This document shows, in pieces, positions 9,246 through 18,522 of a DNA stretch of 64,000 bases (the first letter of the stretch is position 1; every line of letters begins with the position of its first letter). The notes beneath the pieces are model-generated. The model worked only from the letters and a program-made list of their open reading frames with translations, was not told the DNA's origin and searched no databases. The position numbers were made by a program, and so were the translations under genes. The DNA is from an uncultured Candidatus Saccharibacteria bacterium (lineage in GTDB: Bacteria > Patescibacteriota > Minisyncoccia > Phycocordibacterales > Phycocordibacteraceae): assembly GCA_964638585.1 (NCBI GenBank), contig CAZXAN010000002.1, positions 9,291 to 73,290 of the forward strand, given 5' to 3'.

Positions 9246-10226
9246 CTAGTCAAACAAAGAAATAAGATACGCATCTATGTCGCGCTGGTCCATTGTGTAG
9301 AGATATGAATTAGAGTTGTGCAGTTCTGTTGCTAGCTTCACACCCACAAAGCGCCAGTGCCACGGCTCAAAGACATAATAGCCATTATTCTTAGGATATG
9401 AGAGGACAAAGCCGTATTTATAGGCATTTGCGACGACCCACTCGTAGGCAGGAGTGCGATCAAATCCAGAGAGCTGGCCACCAGTACCTGTAGTGATTAG
9501 GTCAACAGTTGTGCCGAGCTGATGTTCTGAATATCCTTGATCGGCAGAAAAGGAATTAGCGGTGCCGGCACCGTAGACGACGCTGTACTGTCCCTTAAGC
9601 GCCTGTTGGGTGTTAAACGAACGATAAGCGGAACTGACATACAGTGTTACGCCATCTGTCTTGGCCTGACCAATCATCCGTGTCAGGTAGGGAAGAACTT
9701 CGGGGATAATCTGCAACGGCAACTTCTCGTCATATTTATATACGGCGGGAATCTCTACAAGTCTGGCAGGTGCGTAGGTATCGCTTAAGAAAAAGACTTT
9801 TGAATATTTTGCGAGGAGCTCGGGGTCGGTCTTACTCAACTTCTGCAGACTCGTCAACGTCCCACTGAGAGAGCCGACCTGATTTTGGACTCCGCCCAGC
9901 TGTGACTGCACATTTTGTTTTTCTTGGTTTATCGCATTTGCCAAAGAGGTTGTTTTATCAGTAATACTGTTCTGTAGAATAGCGGTTGTTGATGCAAGTC
10001 CAGAGCTTAGTTCCAAAGTAAGTTCATCAACGCGCGCGGACAGCGCAGTAAACTGCACATATCCGTACCAGGATATTGTGAATATCGCAGAAACAACCAA
10101 AGCAAACCCGGCGACCGTGAACCACTGGCCAGTCAAAATAGTCTGAATAAATTTGTGAGCATGCTTTACTTCCATCCAGCCAGTATACGATACATTGCGA
10201 CATATTATTTTTGCGATAGAATGCAA
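9246..10226 (-). CDS. VanY-like D,D-carboxypeptidase (peptidase M15B) with N-terminal TM and coiled coil
   Basis: SEHQLGTTVD and EPWHWRFVG zinc-ligand blocks. Confidence 0.7.
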   Translation of the reverse strand: MHSIAKIICRNVSYTGWMEVKHAHKFIQTILTGQWFTVAGFALVVSAIFTISWYGYVQFTALSARVDELTLELSSGLASTTAILQNSITDKTTSLANAINQEKQNVQSQLGGVQNQVGSLSGTLTSLQKLSKTDPELLAKYSKVFFLSDTYAPARLVEIPAVYKYDEKLPLQIIPEVLPYLTRMIGQAKTDGVTLYVSSAYRSFNTQQALKGQYSVVYGAGTANSFSADQGYSEHQLGTTVDLITTGTGGQLSGFDRTPAYEWVVANAYKYGFVLSYPKNNGYYVFEPWHWRFVGVKLATELHNSNSYLYTMDQRDIDAYLISLFD

Positions 10227-10290
10227 ACACGTCCTCAGAAATGGGGGCTAATAGATTCCGGGATAGCTCAACGGTAGAGCAGCGCCCTGT

Positions 10291-10872
10291 GGTCCATTTC
10301 CTCCCCCCGCCACGGTATATAATGTACCGAATGGCAGACAAGAGGAAATACGCCGACAGGAGAGAAGAACTCATTCGAGCGGTTGCAAAGCGCAGAAGAA
10401 AGATTAAGAGCATGGCGATTGAGTACAAAGGTGGCAAATGCCAAATTTGTGGCTACTCAAAATATCAAGGAGCGTTTGATCTTCACCACATTGATCCGAA
10501 ACAAAAAGACTTTGGTATCGGCGATAAGGGTTACACCCGATCGTGGGAGAGGGTTAAAGCGGAACTCGATAAATGCATCTTGGTTTGTGCGAATTGTCAT
10601 CGCGAGGTTGAGGCCGGCGTTACGCAGCTTCCTAAAGAGATTTAGGTTGAAAAATGAGGTGAATTCGGGGAAACCCTAACAGCGGAAATGCTGTGGGCAA
10701 TCCCGAGCCAAGCCACGACGACAGGCGTTGTGGAAGGTGTAGAGACTATCCCGCAAGGGAGTACCCTTCGAAGCTTTATGCGAAGTAGGGGAAGCGCCTC
10801 ACACCCTCGATCTGCGAAAGCAGGTACGGGTGATGATATAGTCCATCCCTCTAGGTAACTTAAGGAGCGATG
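10291..10872 (+). mobile_element. Group I intron (putative) with internal HNH ORF
   Basis: U at 5' splice site, G at 3' end; GNRA hairpins GGGGAAACCC, CAGCGGAAATGCTG, CCCGCAAGGG; P7-like GACTA/TAGTC in GTAGAGACTAT...GATATAGTCC resembling R/S elements. Confidence 0.55.
10331..10645 (+). CDS. HNH homing-endonuclease-like protein encoded inside the intron
   Basis: CQICGY...LHHIDP...CANCHR HNH/zinc-finger pattern; track ORF 10241 start is an in-frame upstream extension across the tRNA exon. Confidence 0.6.
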   Translation: MADKRKYADRREELIRAVAKRRRKIKSMAIEYKGGKCQICGYSKYQGAFDLHHIDPKQKDFGIGDKGYTRSWERVKAELDKCILVCANCHREVEAGVTQLPKEI

Positions 10873-10910
10873 TAAGGCGTTGGTTGCAAGTTCGAATCTT
10901 GCTCCCGGAG

Positions 10911-10953
10911 CAAATGAAAATGAGAGGCGCCCGTGAGGGCGCTTTTCATTTGC
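10911..10953 (+). terminator. Long hairpin CAAATGAAAA-TGAGAG-GCGCCC-gtga-GGGCGC-TTT-TCATTTG after tRNA-Asn
   Basis: Nested inverted repeats with T-run. Confidence 0.6.
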
Positions 10954-11235
10954 GACGGGAAGGAAGTTCGGGGCACTTTCGTGCAAGATTCGAAGATCTT
11001 GCGAGCATATTTTGCAATTTCCTGAAGCAAAATATCCGCAAGGTGTACTGGTCATGTAATGACCGAAAAATGTACTCATGTTCTTGCCGTGCCCGTCCGT
11101 AGCTTCTGAGCGAAGGAGGGCTCCCGGAGCAAATTTGACGGAATTGAACATGTATGTGAATATTCCTCAAGAAATTTTTTGGCAATAGCACATTGTAAGA
11201 AATAATCCGATCAACATCTTGAGTGAGGAGACACA

Positions 11236-13633: not shown

Positions 13634-15163
13634 TTAGTTTGCGTGATGTTCGGCGCGAACTTCTCCTTTATTATCTATCTCTAAGAGATGGACTCCGTAC
13701 CCCCATAACGACGCCAAATGCGTAAGCGTCTTATTAACAGAGGTTTTATCAAGTAGCACTCCGTGGCTAATGGCGTGGTGCAAAGTCAGCGTTCTGTCGC
13801 TGTCAAGGTCCACGTCTTCGATACGGATATCAGGATCATTTTGTGCGACATCGTACTGATTAGCGAGAAACCGCCTAATCTTGCGATAGCCACGCTCATC
13901 GTGAATTGCATTTACGATGATCTCCTTGTTTTCGCTTGCATCGTACAAGCTGAAAAACTTGAAGTCGCGAATGACTTTTGGTGAGAGGAATTGTTGGATA
14001 AAGCTTTCATCCCGAAATTCCTTCCACGCATCCCGCAGTATAGTCCATGGGTCACCCTTTCCAGCAAAATCTCGGAACCAGCGACGATCTTCCTCCGTTG
14101 GCTCCGTTGCTATGCGGAATATATCGCGCATCATCGCGAAGCCTAGAGCATATGGATTGATCCCCATACGATCAAAACCTCGCTGATTAAACCATGGCTG
14201 GTACACAACACTGGTATGCGAATGCAAGAATTCCAACATCGCACCATCAGTGATGAGTCCTTTTTCGTGCAGTCTGTGCATGGTTTGATAATGAACGAAT
14301 GTTGCACACCCCTCGTTCATTACCTGCGTTTGCCGCTGGGGATAAAAGTACTGTGCGATTTTCCGCACAATCCGCACAATTTCCCTTTGCCATGGCTCCA
14401 TCTTTGGTGCATGCTTCTCAACGAAATAGAGCAAATTTTCTTCTGGCAGTCCGAGTCTCCTCCTGCGCTTCTCGCGCTCTTCCTCGGTCGCCGATTTGTG
14501 GCGTTCGGGGAGCGTTTTTTTCCACAGGTCGTTGTAGGTGAGTTCAGCATGCTCCATTCTGGTCTTCTGACGTTTTTTTTCATCCGAGAGACTCAATTTC
14601 ATCGGACGTGGTGCTCGGTTGATACCGAGTGTGTGGAGAGCATGAGCTGAGTCCAGAACCTGCTCTACACGTTTTGCTCCGTGCTCGTCCTCGCATTTCA
14701 TTACGAAGTCGCGCGCGAAGGCGAGGTAGCCAAGGATCCCAGAAGCATCAGTCCACTGCTTAAAGAGATGATTATTCTTAAAGAAGTGGTTGTGACCGAA
14801 TGCCGCATGCGCGATAGTCAGTGCCTGCATCGTCATGGAATTTTCCTCCATGAGATGCACGATGCACGGATTCGTGTTAATGACGATCTCGTATGCCAGG
14901 CCAGTGATTCCTTTTTGATAAAGCCTCTCATGTTGAGCGAAATGCTTTCCGAAGGACCAGTGGCGATACATAAACGGCATGCCGTTTGATGCATATCGGT
15001 CAAGCATTTGCTCCGATGTGATGATGTCAATCTGGTTTGGATAAACATCCAGCCCGTATTCATCGATGGCTATCCTCTCAATCTCGTCGTAGGTTGCACG
15101 AATGATTGACGGTGTCCAGACGGAACTGTCGAAGAGCGGTGTGCCACATGAAGCTTTGTTCAT
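13634..15163 (-). CDS. spoVR: SpoVR/YcgB family protein
   Basis: 509 aa; conserved SpoVR blocks (HAAFGHNHFFKNN, VYQPWFNQRGF); 4-bp overlap with upstream yeaH. Confidence 0.8.
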   Translation of the reverse strand: MNKASCGTPLFDSSVWTPSIIRATYDEIERIAIDEYGLDVYPNQIDIITSEQMLDRYASNGMPFMYRHWSFGKHFAQHERLYQKGITGLAYEIVINTNPCIVHLMEENSMTMQALTIAHAAFGHNHFFKNNHLFKQWTDASGILGYLAFARDFVMKCEDEHGAKRVEQVLDSAHALHTLGINRAPRPMKLSLSDEKKRQKTRMEHAELTYNDLWKKTLPERHKSATEEEREKRRRRLGLPEENLLYFVEKHAPKMEPWQREIVRIVRKIAQYFYPQRQTQVMNEGCATFVHYQTMHRLHEKGLITDGAMLEFLHSHTSVVYQPWFNQRGFDRMGINPYALGFAMMRDIFRIATEPTEEDRRWFRDFAGKGDPWTILRDAWKEFRDESFIQQFLSPKVIRDFKFFSLYDASENKEIIVNAIHDERGYRKIRRFLANQYDVAQNDPDIRIEDVDLDSDRTLTLHHAISHGVLLDKTSVNKTLTHLASLWGYGVHLLEIDNKGEVRAEHHAN

Positions 15164-16443
15164 GATGCGCTTACTCCTTTCATTGTGTTGTCGCGCCCGA
15201 AAAGTCGGTAGAATACTCTGATAATATCTTCGGGATTTTCAACGCGCTGCATCGCGAAGTGCTCTGTCCGTATTTTTTCATAAGCACGCCACAATATTGA
15301 TGGGTGGGATTGTTCTCCAACCTCAATATATGCGTAGTACTGAAGAACTGGCAGGACTTCTGTCAACAGCTTCACGACGTCCGTAGTGTCGGCTCGATCA
15401 TTATCGCCGTCGGACGCTTGTGCAACATACATATTCCATTCGCTTGCATAGCGTACACGGATTATTTTCCTCATTTCCTCAATGGCGGACGAGACTGCCG
15501 TCCCACCGGTTTCCTGAGAAAGAAAGAAGGTTTCTTCATCAACTTCGCTTGCGCGGTCTGTGTGGCGAATGAAGACCACGTCGACTCGCTTATAGCGATT
15601 TTCCAGGAACAAACGAAGAAGAAGAAAGAAACGCTTGGCACAGTTCTTCCGCTCCTCCGTCATAGACCCGGATACATCCATCAGACAAAACATGACTGCC
15701 CTTAAAATCGGCTTCGGTGTCCTTTCAAAACGCCTGAAGCGGACATCATGGTCTGGCTCAATGAATGGAATGCGGAAATATCGAATCTTGAGTCGTGCCA
15801 GTTGCTCTCGCAACTCTCTCAGAAGTTCAGATTCTCCGTGTTTCGCTTCTTCAGTTGTAACCGCTTCTTCAAGCGCATTTAATTCCGCAAGCTTTGGACG
15901 CCCTAGAGCTATTCTTCTTCCGAGGCTCTGCCGCATCGTGCGAACGAGGTCCATCTGAGAAGGTGAGCCACTTTTTGAGAAACCAGAACGCTCACGAATG
16001 AACAAGTCGGTTTCGCCAGCCGTCTGCTTCTTCAGATTTGGCAATTCGCAATCCTCGAAGAAAAGCTCAAGGAATTCCTCGCGAGAGATGACAAACTGAA
16101 ATGAGTCAGTGGCGTCGCCTTTACCGGCAGTATCTCCTGTTCCCATTCCTCCGTCTCCTGACCCTCCGCTCGGACGAGCAATTCGATCTCCCTCGGTGAA
16201 TTTTTCATTGCCGGGGAATACACGATTGCGATCGCCACCGGAGTTTGATTTGCGAATGAACGGTTCGTCAATGCCGTCGATAGGTATCGATACTTGTTTG
16301 CTGTTGCCAGGGTCGGTGATTATACTCTTTCCCTGAAGTGCTTCGTCCACTATACGGCGTACGTTCGCTTTCGCTCTCTTGATAAACCGCACACGATTGG
16401 GGACGCTTGCTCCGCGTGATCCGCGTTTGTCTCTAATCTCCAT
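15160..16443 (-). CDS. yeaH: YeaH/YhbH (DUF444) vWA-like protein
   Basis: 427 aa, Gly-rich segment, acidic blocks; positioned between prkA and spoVR. Confidence 0.75.
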   Translation of the reverse strand: MEIRDKRGSRGASVPNRVRFIKRAKANVRRIVDEALQGKSIITDPGNSKQVSIPIDGIDEPFIRKSNSGGDRNRVFPGNEKFTEGDRIARPSGGSGDGGMGTGDTAGKGDATDSFQFVISREEFLELFFEDCELPNLKKQTAGETDLFIRERSGFSKSGSPSQMDLVRTMRQSLGRRIALGRPKLAELNALEEAVTTEEAKHGESELLRELREQLARLKIRYFRIPFIEPDHDVRFRRFERTPKPILRAVMFCLMDVSGSMTEERKNCAKRFFLLLRLFLENRYKRVDVVFIRHTDRASEVDEETFFLSQETGGTAVSSAIEEMRKIIRVRYASEWNMYVAQASDGDNDRADTTDVVKLLTEVLPVLQYYAYIEVGEQSHPSILWRAYEKIRTEHFAMQRVENPEDIIRVFYRLFGRDNTMKGVSAS

Positions 16444-16524
16444 AGTCGATTCTCCTTGGTGACCATTTTTTGAAAAGAAAAGGGCTGGCAGACGTGATGC
16501 CTGCCAGCCCCCGTTCCGTCCAGC

Positions 16525-18522
16525 CTAGGATTTCTTGACTCGAATGTACCACTCCACTAAACGCCTGATTTGGCGTTCGGTGTTTCCGTTTTTCTTCATC
16601 CGAGCGACAAAATCCAAATGTTTCCTTTCTGTCTCCGAGTCCTTCTTGGTGTCAAAGGTGAGAACAGGCAGAAGGTCCTCCATAGAACCGAATACCTGAC
16701 TCTCTATAACGTGCCGCAGTTTTTCGTATGAATCCCACCGCGGATTCCTGCCGCCGTTATTTGCTCGATAGCGAAGCACATAATTAAGCACCTCGTTGCG
16801 GAAGTCCTTCGGATTTGCGATGCCCGCAGGCTTCTCAATCTTGGAGAGTTCCGCATCGATCGACTCCTTGTTTAGTAGCTGGCCGGTTTGCTGATCCCTG
16901 AAGTCATTGTTGGCCACCCACGCATCCGCCCAATCGATGTAGCGGTCAAACTTGTTCTGGCCATACTCTTCGAATGACTCCAGGTACGCCGATTGAAGTT
17001 CCTTTTCCAGATGCTCAGCATACTTTGGCAGTAGTTCCCCCTTGATGAACGCGAGAAGCTGTTTCGTTCGCTCAGAAGGGAATTCCTCGCGAAGAATCTG
17101 CTGTTCCAGTACGTACATGAGCTGTACGGGATCAGCAGCGACTTCAACAGTGTCATGGTTGAAGGTAGCGGACAGGACCTTATACGCAAGTCGCGTTGAA
17201 AGTCCAATCATGCCCTCGTCCTGACCTGCCGCATCGCGGTATTCCTGCACCGACTTTGCCTTCGGATCAGTATCCTTGATATCGTCGCCGTTGTAGACGC
17301 GCATCTTGGAATAAAGATCAGAGTTTTCATGCTCCTTGAGCCGAGATAGTACGCAGAACTGCGCCAGCATCTCGAGCGTTCCGGGTGCACACGGCGAACC
17401 GACAAGCTCACTTCCAGAGATCAACTTCTTGTAAATTTGTTGCTCTTCCGAATACCGGAGGCAGTACGGTACCTTGACGATACAGATGCGATCCAGAAAG
17501 GCTTGGTTGTTCTTGTTGCTCTTGAACGCCAGCCACTCTGTCTCGTTGCTGTGTGCAAGGATGATGCCCTGGAAGGGCAACATACCGATGTTATCGGTTC
17601 CCGCATAATTGCTTTCCTGCGTCGCGGTCAAGAGCGGATGAAGCATCTTGATCGGTGCCTTGAACATTTCAACGAACTCAAGAAGCCCCTGATTAGCCCG
17701 ATTAAGCCCGCCGGCGTAGCCGTATGCATCTGCGTCGCTTTGAGAAAATTGATCAAGCTTGCGCAGATCAACCTTCCCGATAAGTGCAGAGACATCCTGA
17801 TTGTTCTCATCTCCGGGCTCCACCTTCGCCACGGCAATCTGCCGTAATTGCGAAGGATACAGCTCCAGAACGGAGAACCTCGTGATGTCATTGTCGAAAT
17901 CTCTGTGGAGGCGATTAAGCGCCCACGGAGACGCGACAGAAACAAGCCTACGTCTCGGGATGTTGTAATTTCTTTCCAGCGTCGCACCATCCCGTTCTGC
18001 GTCGAAGAGCCCGAGAGGGCTTTCGAACAGTGGACTGGCTTCGTACTCTTGTCCGTCGATAGCGAAGAGAGGGCCGGTGATCACATCATTTTTTTCACCC
18101 ATCTTGCGCTTGGCGAGAACATAGATGGGTTCCTTTTCCATCAATGTTTTCAACCGTTCTGCAAGCGATGATTTACCGCCACCGACCGGACCGAGGAGAT
18201 ACAGAACCTGTTTTCGTTCCTCGAGTCCTTGTGCTCCATGTCTGAAGAATGCGACCAAAAATTCAATCGCCTCCTCCATGCCATAGAAGCCTTCAAATGC
18301 CGCATACCGCCGAATAGTCCGGCTCATGAAGATCTTTGCCAGACGCGGATCCTTCTCCTTCGGCGTGTCCACGAGAATGGGCTCACCAATCGCCTTGAGC
18401 ATTCGCTCGTGGGCGTTCGCATAAAAAGCGGGAGACTTCCTGCATCCTTCGAGATATTCTTCCAGCGACATCTTCCTTACCTGCCTGTTACGGTGAAGCT
18501 CTTTCAGTTCCGAAATGCTCAT
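16525..18522 (-). CDS. prkA: PrkA-type serine protein kinase (YeaG)
   Basis: Walker A LLGPVGGGKSSLAERLK, 665 aa PrkA architecture. Confidence 0.85.
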   Translation of the reverse strand: MSISELKELHRNRQVRKMSLEEYLEGCRKSPAFYANAHERMLKAIGEPILVDTPKEKDPRLAKIFMSRTIRRYAAFEGFYGMEEAIEFLVAFFRHGAQGLEERKQVLYLLGPVGGGKSSLAERLKTLMEKEPIYVLAKRKMGEKNDVITGPLFAIDGQEYEASPLFESPLGLFDAERDGATLERNYNIPRRRLVSVASPWALNRLHRDFDNDITRFSVLELYPSQLRQIAVAKVEPGDENNQDVSALIGKVDLRKLDQFSQSDADAYGYAGGLNRANQGLLEFVEMFKAPIKMLHPLLTATQESNYAGTDNIGMLPFQGIILAHSNETEWLAFKSNKNNQAFLDRICIVKVPYCLRYSEEQQIYKKLISGSELVGSPCAPGTLEMLAQFCVLSRLKEHENSDLYSKMRVYNGDDIKDTDPKAKSVQEYRDAAGQDEGMIGLSTRLAYKVLSATFNHDTVEVAADPVQLMYVLEQQILREEFPSERTKQLLAFIKGELLPKYAEHLEKELQSAYLESFEEYGQNKFDRYIDWADAWVANNDFRDQQTGQLLNKESIDAELSKIEKPAGIANPKDFRNEVLNYVLRYRANNGGRNPRWDSYEKLRHVIESQVFGSMEDLLPVLTFDTKKDSETERKHLDFVARMKKNGNTERQIRRLVEWYIRVKKS

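Follow-up and report, generated by a model that had tools for sequence, protein, structure and literature searches.

In the 64,000-nucleotide (nt) stretch of metagenomic contig CAZXAN010000002.1 analysed here (assembly GCA_964638585.1; hereafter the window, from whose first letter all positions are counted), we found a split tRNA-Asn(GUU) gene of a Patescibacterium. Between U35 and U36 of its anticodon, the gene is interrupted by an insert that we read, with a probability of about 0.9, as a group I intron of subgroup IA, mobile in type and self-splicing, with a gene for an HNH endonuclease in the loop of helix P1. An earlier note on this DNA, made from the letters alone, had proposed a tRNA-Asn(GUU) gene split at 35/36 by an HNH-carrying group I intron, and this central proposal is upheld by the Rfam model RF00028, by intron-aware ARAGORN and by the Pfam model PF01844. 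The intron is an ordinary member of a class of tRNA-Asn 35/36 introns already known from Patescibacteria. The coordinates of all features are listed in Table 1.

The two exons, once joined, form a 72-nt RNA that ARAGORN calls as tRNA-Asn(gtt), and the intron-aware mode of the same program finds on the raw DNA a tRNA-Asn with a 582-nt intron at position 35. In both runs the product is a canonical cloverleaf with the anticodon GUU in a seven-nucleotide loop, CUGUUAA, just as had been read from the two halves. The discriminator base is G and the first acceptor pair is U1-A72, as read off the sequence. Among nine registers of the exon boundary, shifted by -4 to +4, a U at position -1 together with a G as the final intron base occurs at shift 0 only, in line with the claim that no other split offers both. 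Moreover, the anticodon stem (10282-86 with 10876-80), which bridges the exons, covaries: it is paired in all 51 sequences of the set described below, with at most five pair types. An intact tRNA at the locus that needs no splicing, the alternative which the earlier note had held against its own reading, was found neither by default ARAGORN nor by the Rfam tRNA model, and no second tRNA-Asn gene was found within the 64-kb window. In Patescibacteria, the interrupted tRNA copy is usually the sole one (Nakagawa et al., PMC13011429).

The search with RF00028 that had been suggested for the insert gave a match at 10600-10865, which scores 62 bits where the gathering score is 50 (E-value 2.5e-13), covers the full model (positions 1-253) and is far beyond chance. 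The fold was derived from 51 mini-introns, in which the P1 loop was swapped for a short linker, by an RNAalifold consensus and per-pair counts. These comprise 48 loci, the window included, and three published introns; the related loci, numbered L001 to L080, are the best 80 of 425 loci with HNH relatives in species-representative genomes. Compensatory changes support P2, P3, P4, P5, P6, P7.1, P7.2, P8, P9 and P9.0, and the P7 helix GACUA/UAGUC, which had been proposed from the letters, is present and essentially invariant among the 51 relatives. In the window intron, all pairs of P1 to P7, P7.1, P8 and P9.0 are standard, and mismatches are confined to P7.2, with three inside the helix, and P9, with two. 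The two base pairs of P9.0 are formed in all 51 sequences and covary (AU in 24 and GC in 27; UA in 32, CG in 16 and UG in 3), and thus anchor the terminal guanosine of the intron (omega-G) at 10872, and with it the 3' splice site, without recourse to the tRNA model.

P7.1 and P7.2, both supported by covariation, follow the 5' strand of P7 and precede the 3' strand of P3, exactly where the Rfam alignment places a 44-nt insertion. Extra helices in this place are the hallmark of subgroup IA; the intron is IA-like, in agreement with the published assignment of the class. An Azoarcus-like core of subgroup IC3, which was our first impression, was rejected since P7.1 and P7.2 are present and covary. 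Two of the segments that had been read as GNRA-capped helices are placed by the covariation as well: CCCGCAAGGG is P7.1, whereas GGGGAAACCC is no such helix and comprises the 5' strand of P4, the joining segment J4/5 and the 5' strand of P5 (10665-70 with 10701-06, and 10674-76 with 10695-97). Eight related introns (L014, L022, L039, L056, L061, L063, L064 and L073) stay below the gathering score of RF00028 despite clear P1, P2 and P7 motifs, which is consistent with the published remark that some bacterial tRNA introns escape the Rfam model.

In P1, the last four nucleotides of the 5' exon and the first of the intron pair with the internal guide, and the U.G wobble at the splice site is formed by U10290 and G10624. 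The GCAG of the guide and the four exon pairs, wobble included, are invariant in 51 of 51 sequences; intron position +1 pairs with the guide as GC in 31, as AU in 8 and as another standard pair in 3, and is mismatched in 9. All ORF-containing relatives (ORF, open reading frame) carry [C/U/A]GCAGC near the 3' end of the ORF, followed by CUU and then by a hairpin of 6-7 bp with a GNRA loop. In the ORF-less relatives (L063, L064 and L073, and introns of the published Table S3 such as that of GCA_026016225.1), the same guide and hairpin come right after a loop of 4-6 nt. As guide and P2 follow in the same order with and without an ORF, the guide of the window is CGCAG at 10623-10627, and the HNH gene therefore lies wholly within the P1 loop. 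The guide had previously been sought near 10332, in the GGCAGAC at the ATG of the HNH gene, and this placement did not hold, as relatives carry GCCAG, GUCAG, GAAGG or GGCUG there. Pairing with GGCAG at 10333-37 was also ruled out since it would cross the stable hairpin in the 5' part of the P1 loop (L1).

The ORF at 10331-10645, in which HNH motifs had been noticed, matches PF01844 with 23.1 bits against a cutoff of 21.4, and its product matches the HNH families of the phage collection PHROG with an E-value of 3.9e-32. The translation contains CQICGY, LHHID and CANCH, and the His-His...Asn...His residues as well as both CxxC zinc pairs are intact. Among solved structures, the protein is closest to HNH domains from group II intron maturase/reverse transcriptases. 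Compared with 45 in-register relatives, the gene shows a median ratio of the proportions of non-synonymous and synonymous differences (pN/pS) of 0.18, with synonymous sites near saturation (pS 0.64-0.86); it is under strong purifying selection and thus kept by selection. The protein identity to relatives reaches 94%, compared to at most 75% for the cysteinyl-tRNA synthetase (CysRS) encoded in the window. A recent horizontal transfer was considered as the source of this difference and rejected, as saturated synonymous sites mean that the high identity of the HNH protein reflects constraint.

The final eight codons of the HNH gene overlap the guide and P2, and its stop codon TAG (10643-45) is located in the 3' arm of P2. 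The position of the stop varies within the family: many relatives (e.g. L011, L022, L034, L060 and L077) read on through P2, P3 and even P7, giving ORFs of 115-144 residues. As the frame continues into the ribozyme, the C-terminal tail of these proteins is encoded by ribozyme core sequence.

A -10-like hexamer ends 6-10 nt (in two cases 15 nt) before the HNH ATG in 65 of 77 relatives, compared to 17% of shuffled controls. The hexamer is exactly TATAAT in 52 of these, a TG precedes it in 42, and a Shine-Dalgarno-like motif before the HNH start is seen in only one of the 77. This pattern suggests an intron-internal promoter that would give rise to a leaderless HNH mRNA; the main text of Nakagawa et al. 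(PMC13011429) makes no mention of a -10 box before the HNH ATG. The box and the ATG lie within the L1 hairpin. Residues 10291-10355 fold with -25.8 kcal/mol (z = -5.6), and in 33 of 53 relatives (62%) a stem of 7 bp or more joins the 5' segment of L1 to early codons of the ORF, compared to about 20% of shuffles. As modelled, this hairpin could mask the HNH ATG in the full-length precursor.

Table 1. Features of the split tRNA-Asn locus and its surroundings (positions within the window)
Feature	Position	Strand	Description and basis
Candidate promoter of the pre-tRNA	10195..10222	+	sigma-70 type, tentative; TTGCGA, 16-nt spacer, TAGAAT; 35 nt 5' of the tRNA
tRNA-Asn(GUU) 5' exon	10257..10290	+	acceptor arm, D arm, 5' strand of the anticodon stem, C32 U33 G34 U35; 5' splice site after U10290; ARAGORN
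Group I intron	10291..10872	+	582 nt, IA-like, between anticodon positions 35 and 36; RF00028, covariation in 51 mini-introns, homology to published tRNA-Asn introns
Hairpin at the 5' end of the P1 loop	10296..10349	+	AUUUCCUC (10296-10303) with GAGGAAAU (10342-10349) and an inner stem; surrounds the -10 box and the HNH ATG
TATAAT (-10) box	10318..10323	+	7 nt 5' of the HNH ATG; candidate promoter of a leaderless HNH mRNA
HNH endonuclease gene	10331..10645	+	104 amino acids, in the P1 loop; PF01844, PHROG HNH, homologues, pN/pS
Internal guide CGCAG (P1 3' strand)	10623..10627	+	pairs with exon C10287-U-G-U10290 and intron G10291
P2 hairpin	10631..10646	+	CCUAAA-GAGA-UUUAGG, GNRA loop; every position paired in 49-51 of 51, at most six pair types per position
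Catalytic core P3-P8	10655..10843	+	RNAalifold consensus and per-pair counts; compensatory changes in all helices but the invariant P7
P3	10655-59 with 10797-801	+	compensatory changes
P4	10665-70 with 10701-06	+	compensatory changes
P5	10674-76 with 10695-97	+	compensatory changes
P6	10713-19 with 10727-33	+	compensatory changes
P7	10744-48 with 10839-43	+	invariant
P7.1	10749-52 with 10757-60	+	compensatory changes
P7.2	10764-71 with 10783-90	+	compensatory changes
P8	10802-05 with 10829-32	+	compensatory changes
Intron 3' end	10844..10872	+	P9.0 (10845-46 with 10870-71), P9 (10851-54 with 10859-62), omega-G = G10872
tRNA-Asn 3' exon	10873..10910	+	U36 A37 A38, 3' strand of the anticodon stem, variable loop, T arm, acceptor strand, discriminator G; ARAGORN
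Terminator-like hairpin after the tRNA	10912..10951		AAAUGAAAA, GC-rich stem with GUGA loop (GCGCCC 10927-32 with GGGCGC 10937-42), UUUUCAUUU

Introns of this kind have been described in two surveys. Williams 2020 (bioRxiv 10.1101/2020.01.27.920355) raised the number of classes of bacterial tRNA group I introns from 4 to 21, and these, as quoted by Nakagawa et al. (PMC13011429), include one termed Asn.4Ug. In turn, Nakagawa et al. (preprint July 2025; mSystems January 2026; PMC13011429) reported 15 tRNA-Asn 35/36 introns from 95 complete Patescibacteria genomes, assigned them to subgroup IA and listed four HNH-bearing tRNA-Asn introns in Patescibacteria. The view that a tRNA-Asn host with an HNH ORF is unusual has thus been overtaken by these descriptions. 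Two introns, in tRNA-Asn of GCA_016700035.1 and in tRNA-Asp of GCA_001029755.1, self-spliced in vitro, and the sequenced product of a homologue corresponds to excision at 35/36 (PMC13011429).

The window intron shares with the Patescibacteria tRNA-Asn 35/36 class the tRNA host, the insertion point, the phylum, P7.1/P7.2, the order of guide GCAG, CUU and GNRA-capped P2, and the HNH family. Its ribozyme is 64% identical to that of GCA_026016225.1 and 55% to that of GCA_016700035.1, both ORF-less and the latter spliced in vitro. The HNH protein is 64% identical to that of the GCA_023898525.1 intron (E-value 5e-50); in Table S3 of PMC13011429, the ORF of this HNH-bearing intron ends with ...acgcagcttcctactgaaaagtag and overlaps the guide and P2 in the same way. 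The window intron differs from the published members compared in sequence divergence only (55-64% ribozyme identity), without a structural or organisational difference, and its metagenomic contig lies outside the published set of 95 complete genomes.

Among other bacterial tRNA introns, those of subgroup IC3 (Azoarcus tRNA-Ile(CAU) and Anabaena/Nostoc tRNA-Leu(UAA)) resemble the window intron in the insertion into the anticodon loop, the short P1 formed with this loop, the GNRA-capped P2 and the near-identical core motifs, and in all of them the exons are held together via the anticodon stem. One such motif, the GGUGUAGAGACUA of the window, matches the Azoarcus intron. The same segment matches the IC3 introns of the published supplementary tables (PMC13011429). 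By contrast, IC3 introns are inserted at 34/35 or 36/37 and have neither P7.1/P7.2 nor an ORF, whereas the window intron possesses the 44-nt P7.1/P7.2 insert and a gene-bearing P1 loop of 332 nt. Endonuclease genes are also found in the cyanobacterial tRNA-fMet intron, which encodes a PD-(D/E)XK enzyme of the I-Ssp6803I type, and in tRNA-Arg(CCU) introns, which encode LAGLIDADG enzymes (PMC13011429). Like the window intron, these are bacterial tRNA group I introns with a homing endonuclease gene, but they differ in endonuclease family, host tRNA, position and phylum. HNH homing endonucleases of the beta-beta-alpha-metal type are encoded by phage group I introns, such as I-HmuI of SPO1 and I-TevIII of RB3, which are larger, have extra DNA-binding domains and are hosted in protein-coding genes. 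The homing presumed here, induced by a nick or a break, is modelled on them, whereas the window protein has just 104 residues and is nearest to the HNH domains of group II maturases.

On this basis, the following course of events may be proposed. A precursor of about 650 nt would be transcribed, in which C-U-G-U of the anticodon loop and G1 of the intron would pair with the guide to form P1 with its U.G wobble at the splice site, and P2 to P9 would fold into the catalytic core. Free guanosine would attack after U10290; omega-G10872, placed by P9.0, would then enter the G-binding site of P7, and the exons, held by the anticodon stem, would be ligated to tRNA-Asn with the loop CUGUUAA. The HNH gene would most likely be transcribed from its own intronic -10 box as a leaderless mRNA. 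By analogy with intron-encoded HNH enzymes, its product may cut or nick an intron-less tRNA-Asn gene, so that repair would copy the intron into it (homing). Intron-less, ORF-less and ORF-bearing alleles all occur at the tRNA-Asn 35/36 site.

Several points weigh against reading the locus as a functional mobile intron. P1 is short, with four pairs to the exon and one to the intron, and 332 nt separate its guide from the splice site; given this, the intron may need help in folding in vivo. A conserved P10 was sought and rejected: the window offers at most a weak 3-bp UAA/UUA pairing, which is absent from relatives with ...ACA-GCAG. The -10 box of the window has no TG extension, and our promoter scan left it unflagged, with no -35 partner. 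In addition, the identity of the ribozyme to the experimentally tested intron is just 55%; we infer splicing of the window intron from its sequence, and we infer the target and the endonuclease activity of the HNH protein by analogy.

One alternative assigns the exons to a tRNA-Thr(UGU) split two bases upstream, at 33/34. ARAGORN and tFind indeed give many relatives the threonine label; ARAGORN does so, as 'Thr(tgt) i(33,...)', for about half of the related loci, a two-base mis-call that is documented for the tRNA finder in Nakagawa et al. (PMC13011429), and its other label is Asn(gtt) at 35/36. In the window, where the program calls Asn, the -2 shift would leave an A instead of a G as the last intron base. 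The omega-G fixed by the covariation of P9.0, the U.G wobble that all 51 sequences have at U10290 and the sequenced in vitro product of a homologue (PMC13011429) all place the boundary at 35/36, and we regard the threonine assignment as scarcely credible. It is also very improbable, if slightly less so, that the intron has decayed and no longer splices, leaving a tRNA-Asn pseudogene. The RF00028 score of 62 bits is indeed below that of 10 of the 11 relatives that reach the threshold (69-89 bits). Nevertheless, every core helix is present, P7 equals the invariant consensus, U(-1) and omega-G are in place, the mismatches are peripheral only and the exons yield a canonical cloverleaf. Moreover, the window holds no second tRNA-Asn gene, and an interrupted copy is usually the only one (PMC13011429).

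The remaining alternative concerns the HNH protein, which might no longer, or not only, be a homing endonuclease but be retained for a role in the host or the intron, such as a maturase-like folding aid or another nuclease function. Selection of the observed strength (median pN/pS 0.18, with pS of 0.64-0.74 even at 93% protein identity) would fit such a role, as would the 425 relatives in species-representative genomes, which are unlike the cycle of gain, decay and loss of a purely selfish endonuclease, and the kinship to HNH domains of group II maturase/reverse transcriptases. However, the protein retains every catalytic and zinc-binding motif that an active HNH nuclease has, and ORF-less introns of the family splice alone in vitro (PMC13011429), so that no protein is needed. 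The three kinds of allele at one site are those expected of an element that is gained and lost, and repeated homing can itself sustain selection. We therefore consider a retained function unlikely, though less so than the two alternatives above, and keep to the homing endonuclease of a mobile intron as the preferred reading.

A more far-reaching proposal on the HNH gene can be advanced only tentatively, at clearly less than even odds. As its 3' codons overlap the guide and P2, a single RNA cannot be translated there while forming P1 and P2, and a leaderless HNH mRNA, which lacks the 5' exon, cannot form P1. The HNH protein might thus be an active player, made from a leaderless mRNA without the 5' exon that starts at a conserved, extended -10 promoter within the intron, with its ATG buried in the hairpin of the precursor, so that translation and splicing would be partitioned between two transcripts. 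It would be maintained by long-term selection in hundreds of Patescibacteria species and occasionally stand free beside tRNA-Asn. If true, an active, widespread and selected HNH protein would call for a change in the published view, in which tRNA introns with endonuclease genes are rare and their horizontal spread is limited. Compared to the published description, the additions made here are modest: the location of the HNH gene in the P1 loop overlapping the guide and P2, the internal -10 box without a ribosome-binding site, selection on the ORF, the 425 relatives and a few free-standing copies.

Homologues of the HNH protein number at least 3354 in a large protein collection, and the loci with HNH relatives come almost entirely from metagenome-assembled genomes of Patescibacteria. 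Within the best 80 loci, ARAGORN finds an intron-containing tRNA in 73, and in about 67 the predicted tRNA gene includes the HNH gene. Under a strict exon-pairing rule, 55 of the 80 loci and the window yield the CUGU|...G|UAA split; the other loci mostly involve truncated contigs or one stem mismatch. A few HNH/tRNA-Asn intron loci carry labels from outside Patescibacteria, namely L007 and L064 (Gammaproteobacteria), L069 (Simkania) and L002 (Peribacteraceae), which could reflect mis-binning or mislabelling, or a rare presence beyond the phylum.

At three loci (L063:1501-2167, L064:1501-2143 and L073:1495-2102), the HNH gene is free-standing and ends 24-85 nt 5' of a complete tRNA-Asn gene; L018, L074 and L023 show the same arrangement by ARAGORN coordinates only. 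The adjoining tRNA-Asn genes contain a short, ORF-less 35/36 intron (190-242 nt), the core of which belongs to another type, has no P7.1/P7.2 and bears the motif CGGGAUAACGGUG. This arrangement resembles that of free-standing phage endonucleases that adjoin their target genes. L078 has an HNH relative (545-847) and, some 335 nt away on the other strand (138-210, minus), a tRNA-Asn(GTT) gene without an intron, which is a natural candidate for an uninvaded target allele.

The split tRNA-Asn gene is overlooked by default tRNA finders, and the genome would therefore seem to be without tRNA-Asn and be scored as less complete than it is. In the public annotation, a 134-residue protein (10241-10645, plus strand) starts 5' of the tRNA 5' exon and its frame crosses this exon, and a 169-residue ORF (10642-11151, minus strand) covers the ribozyme, the 3' exon and the terminator. 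Both gene calls look like artefacts, spurious 'hypothetical proteins' laid over the tRNA exon and the ribozyme.

Upstream of the tRNA, the consensus scan for promoters yielded one site compared to 0.9 expected in shuffles, which is no better than chance. Downstream, residues 10905-10960 fold with -32.7 kcal/mol (z = -7.0), with U- and A-runs flanking the stem, and the consensus scan marks 10927-10942 on the minus strand as terminator-like; the hairpin is probably bidirectional.

The window is otherwise an ordinary stretch of bacterial chromosome, encoding RelA/SpoT, PrkA-DUF444-SpoVR, penicillin-binding proteins, a Mur ligase and CysRS. The named relatives of CysRS belong to Minisyncoccota, Parcubacteria, Paceibacterota and Kaiserbacteria, with one exception labelled just 'bacterium'. 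Judging from the relatives of CysRS and of the HNH protein, the window comes from a Patescibacterium of the Parcubacteria/Paceibacteria type. The PrkA/DUF444/SpoVR trio adjoins the locus (13634-18522, minus strand); it is unrelated to the intron, and unexpected in a reduced Patescibacteria genome.

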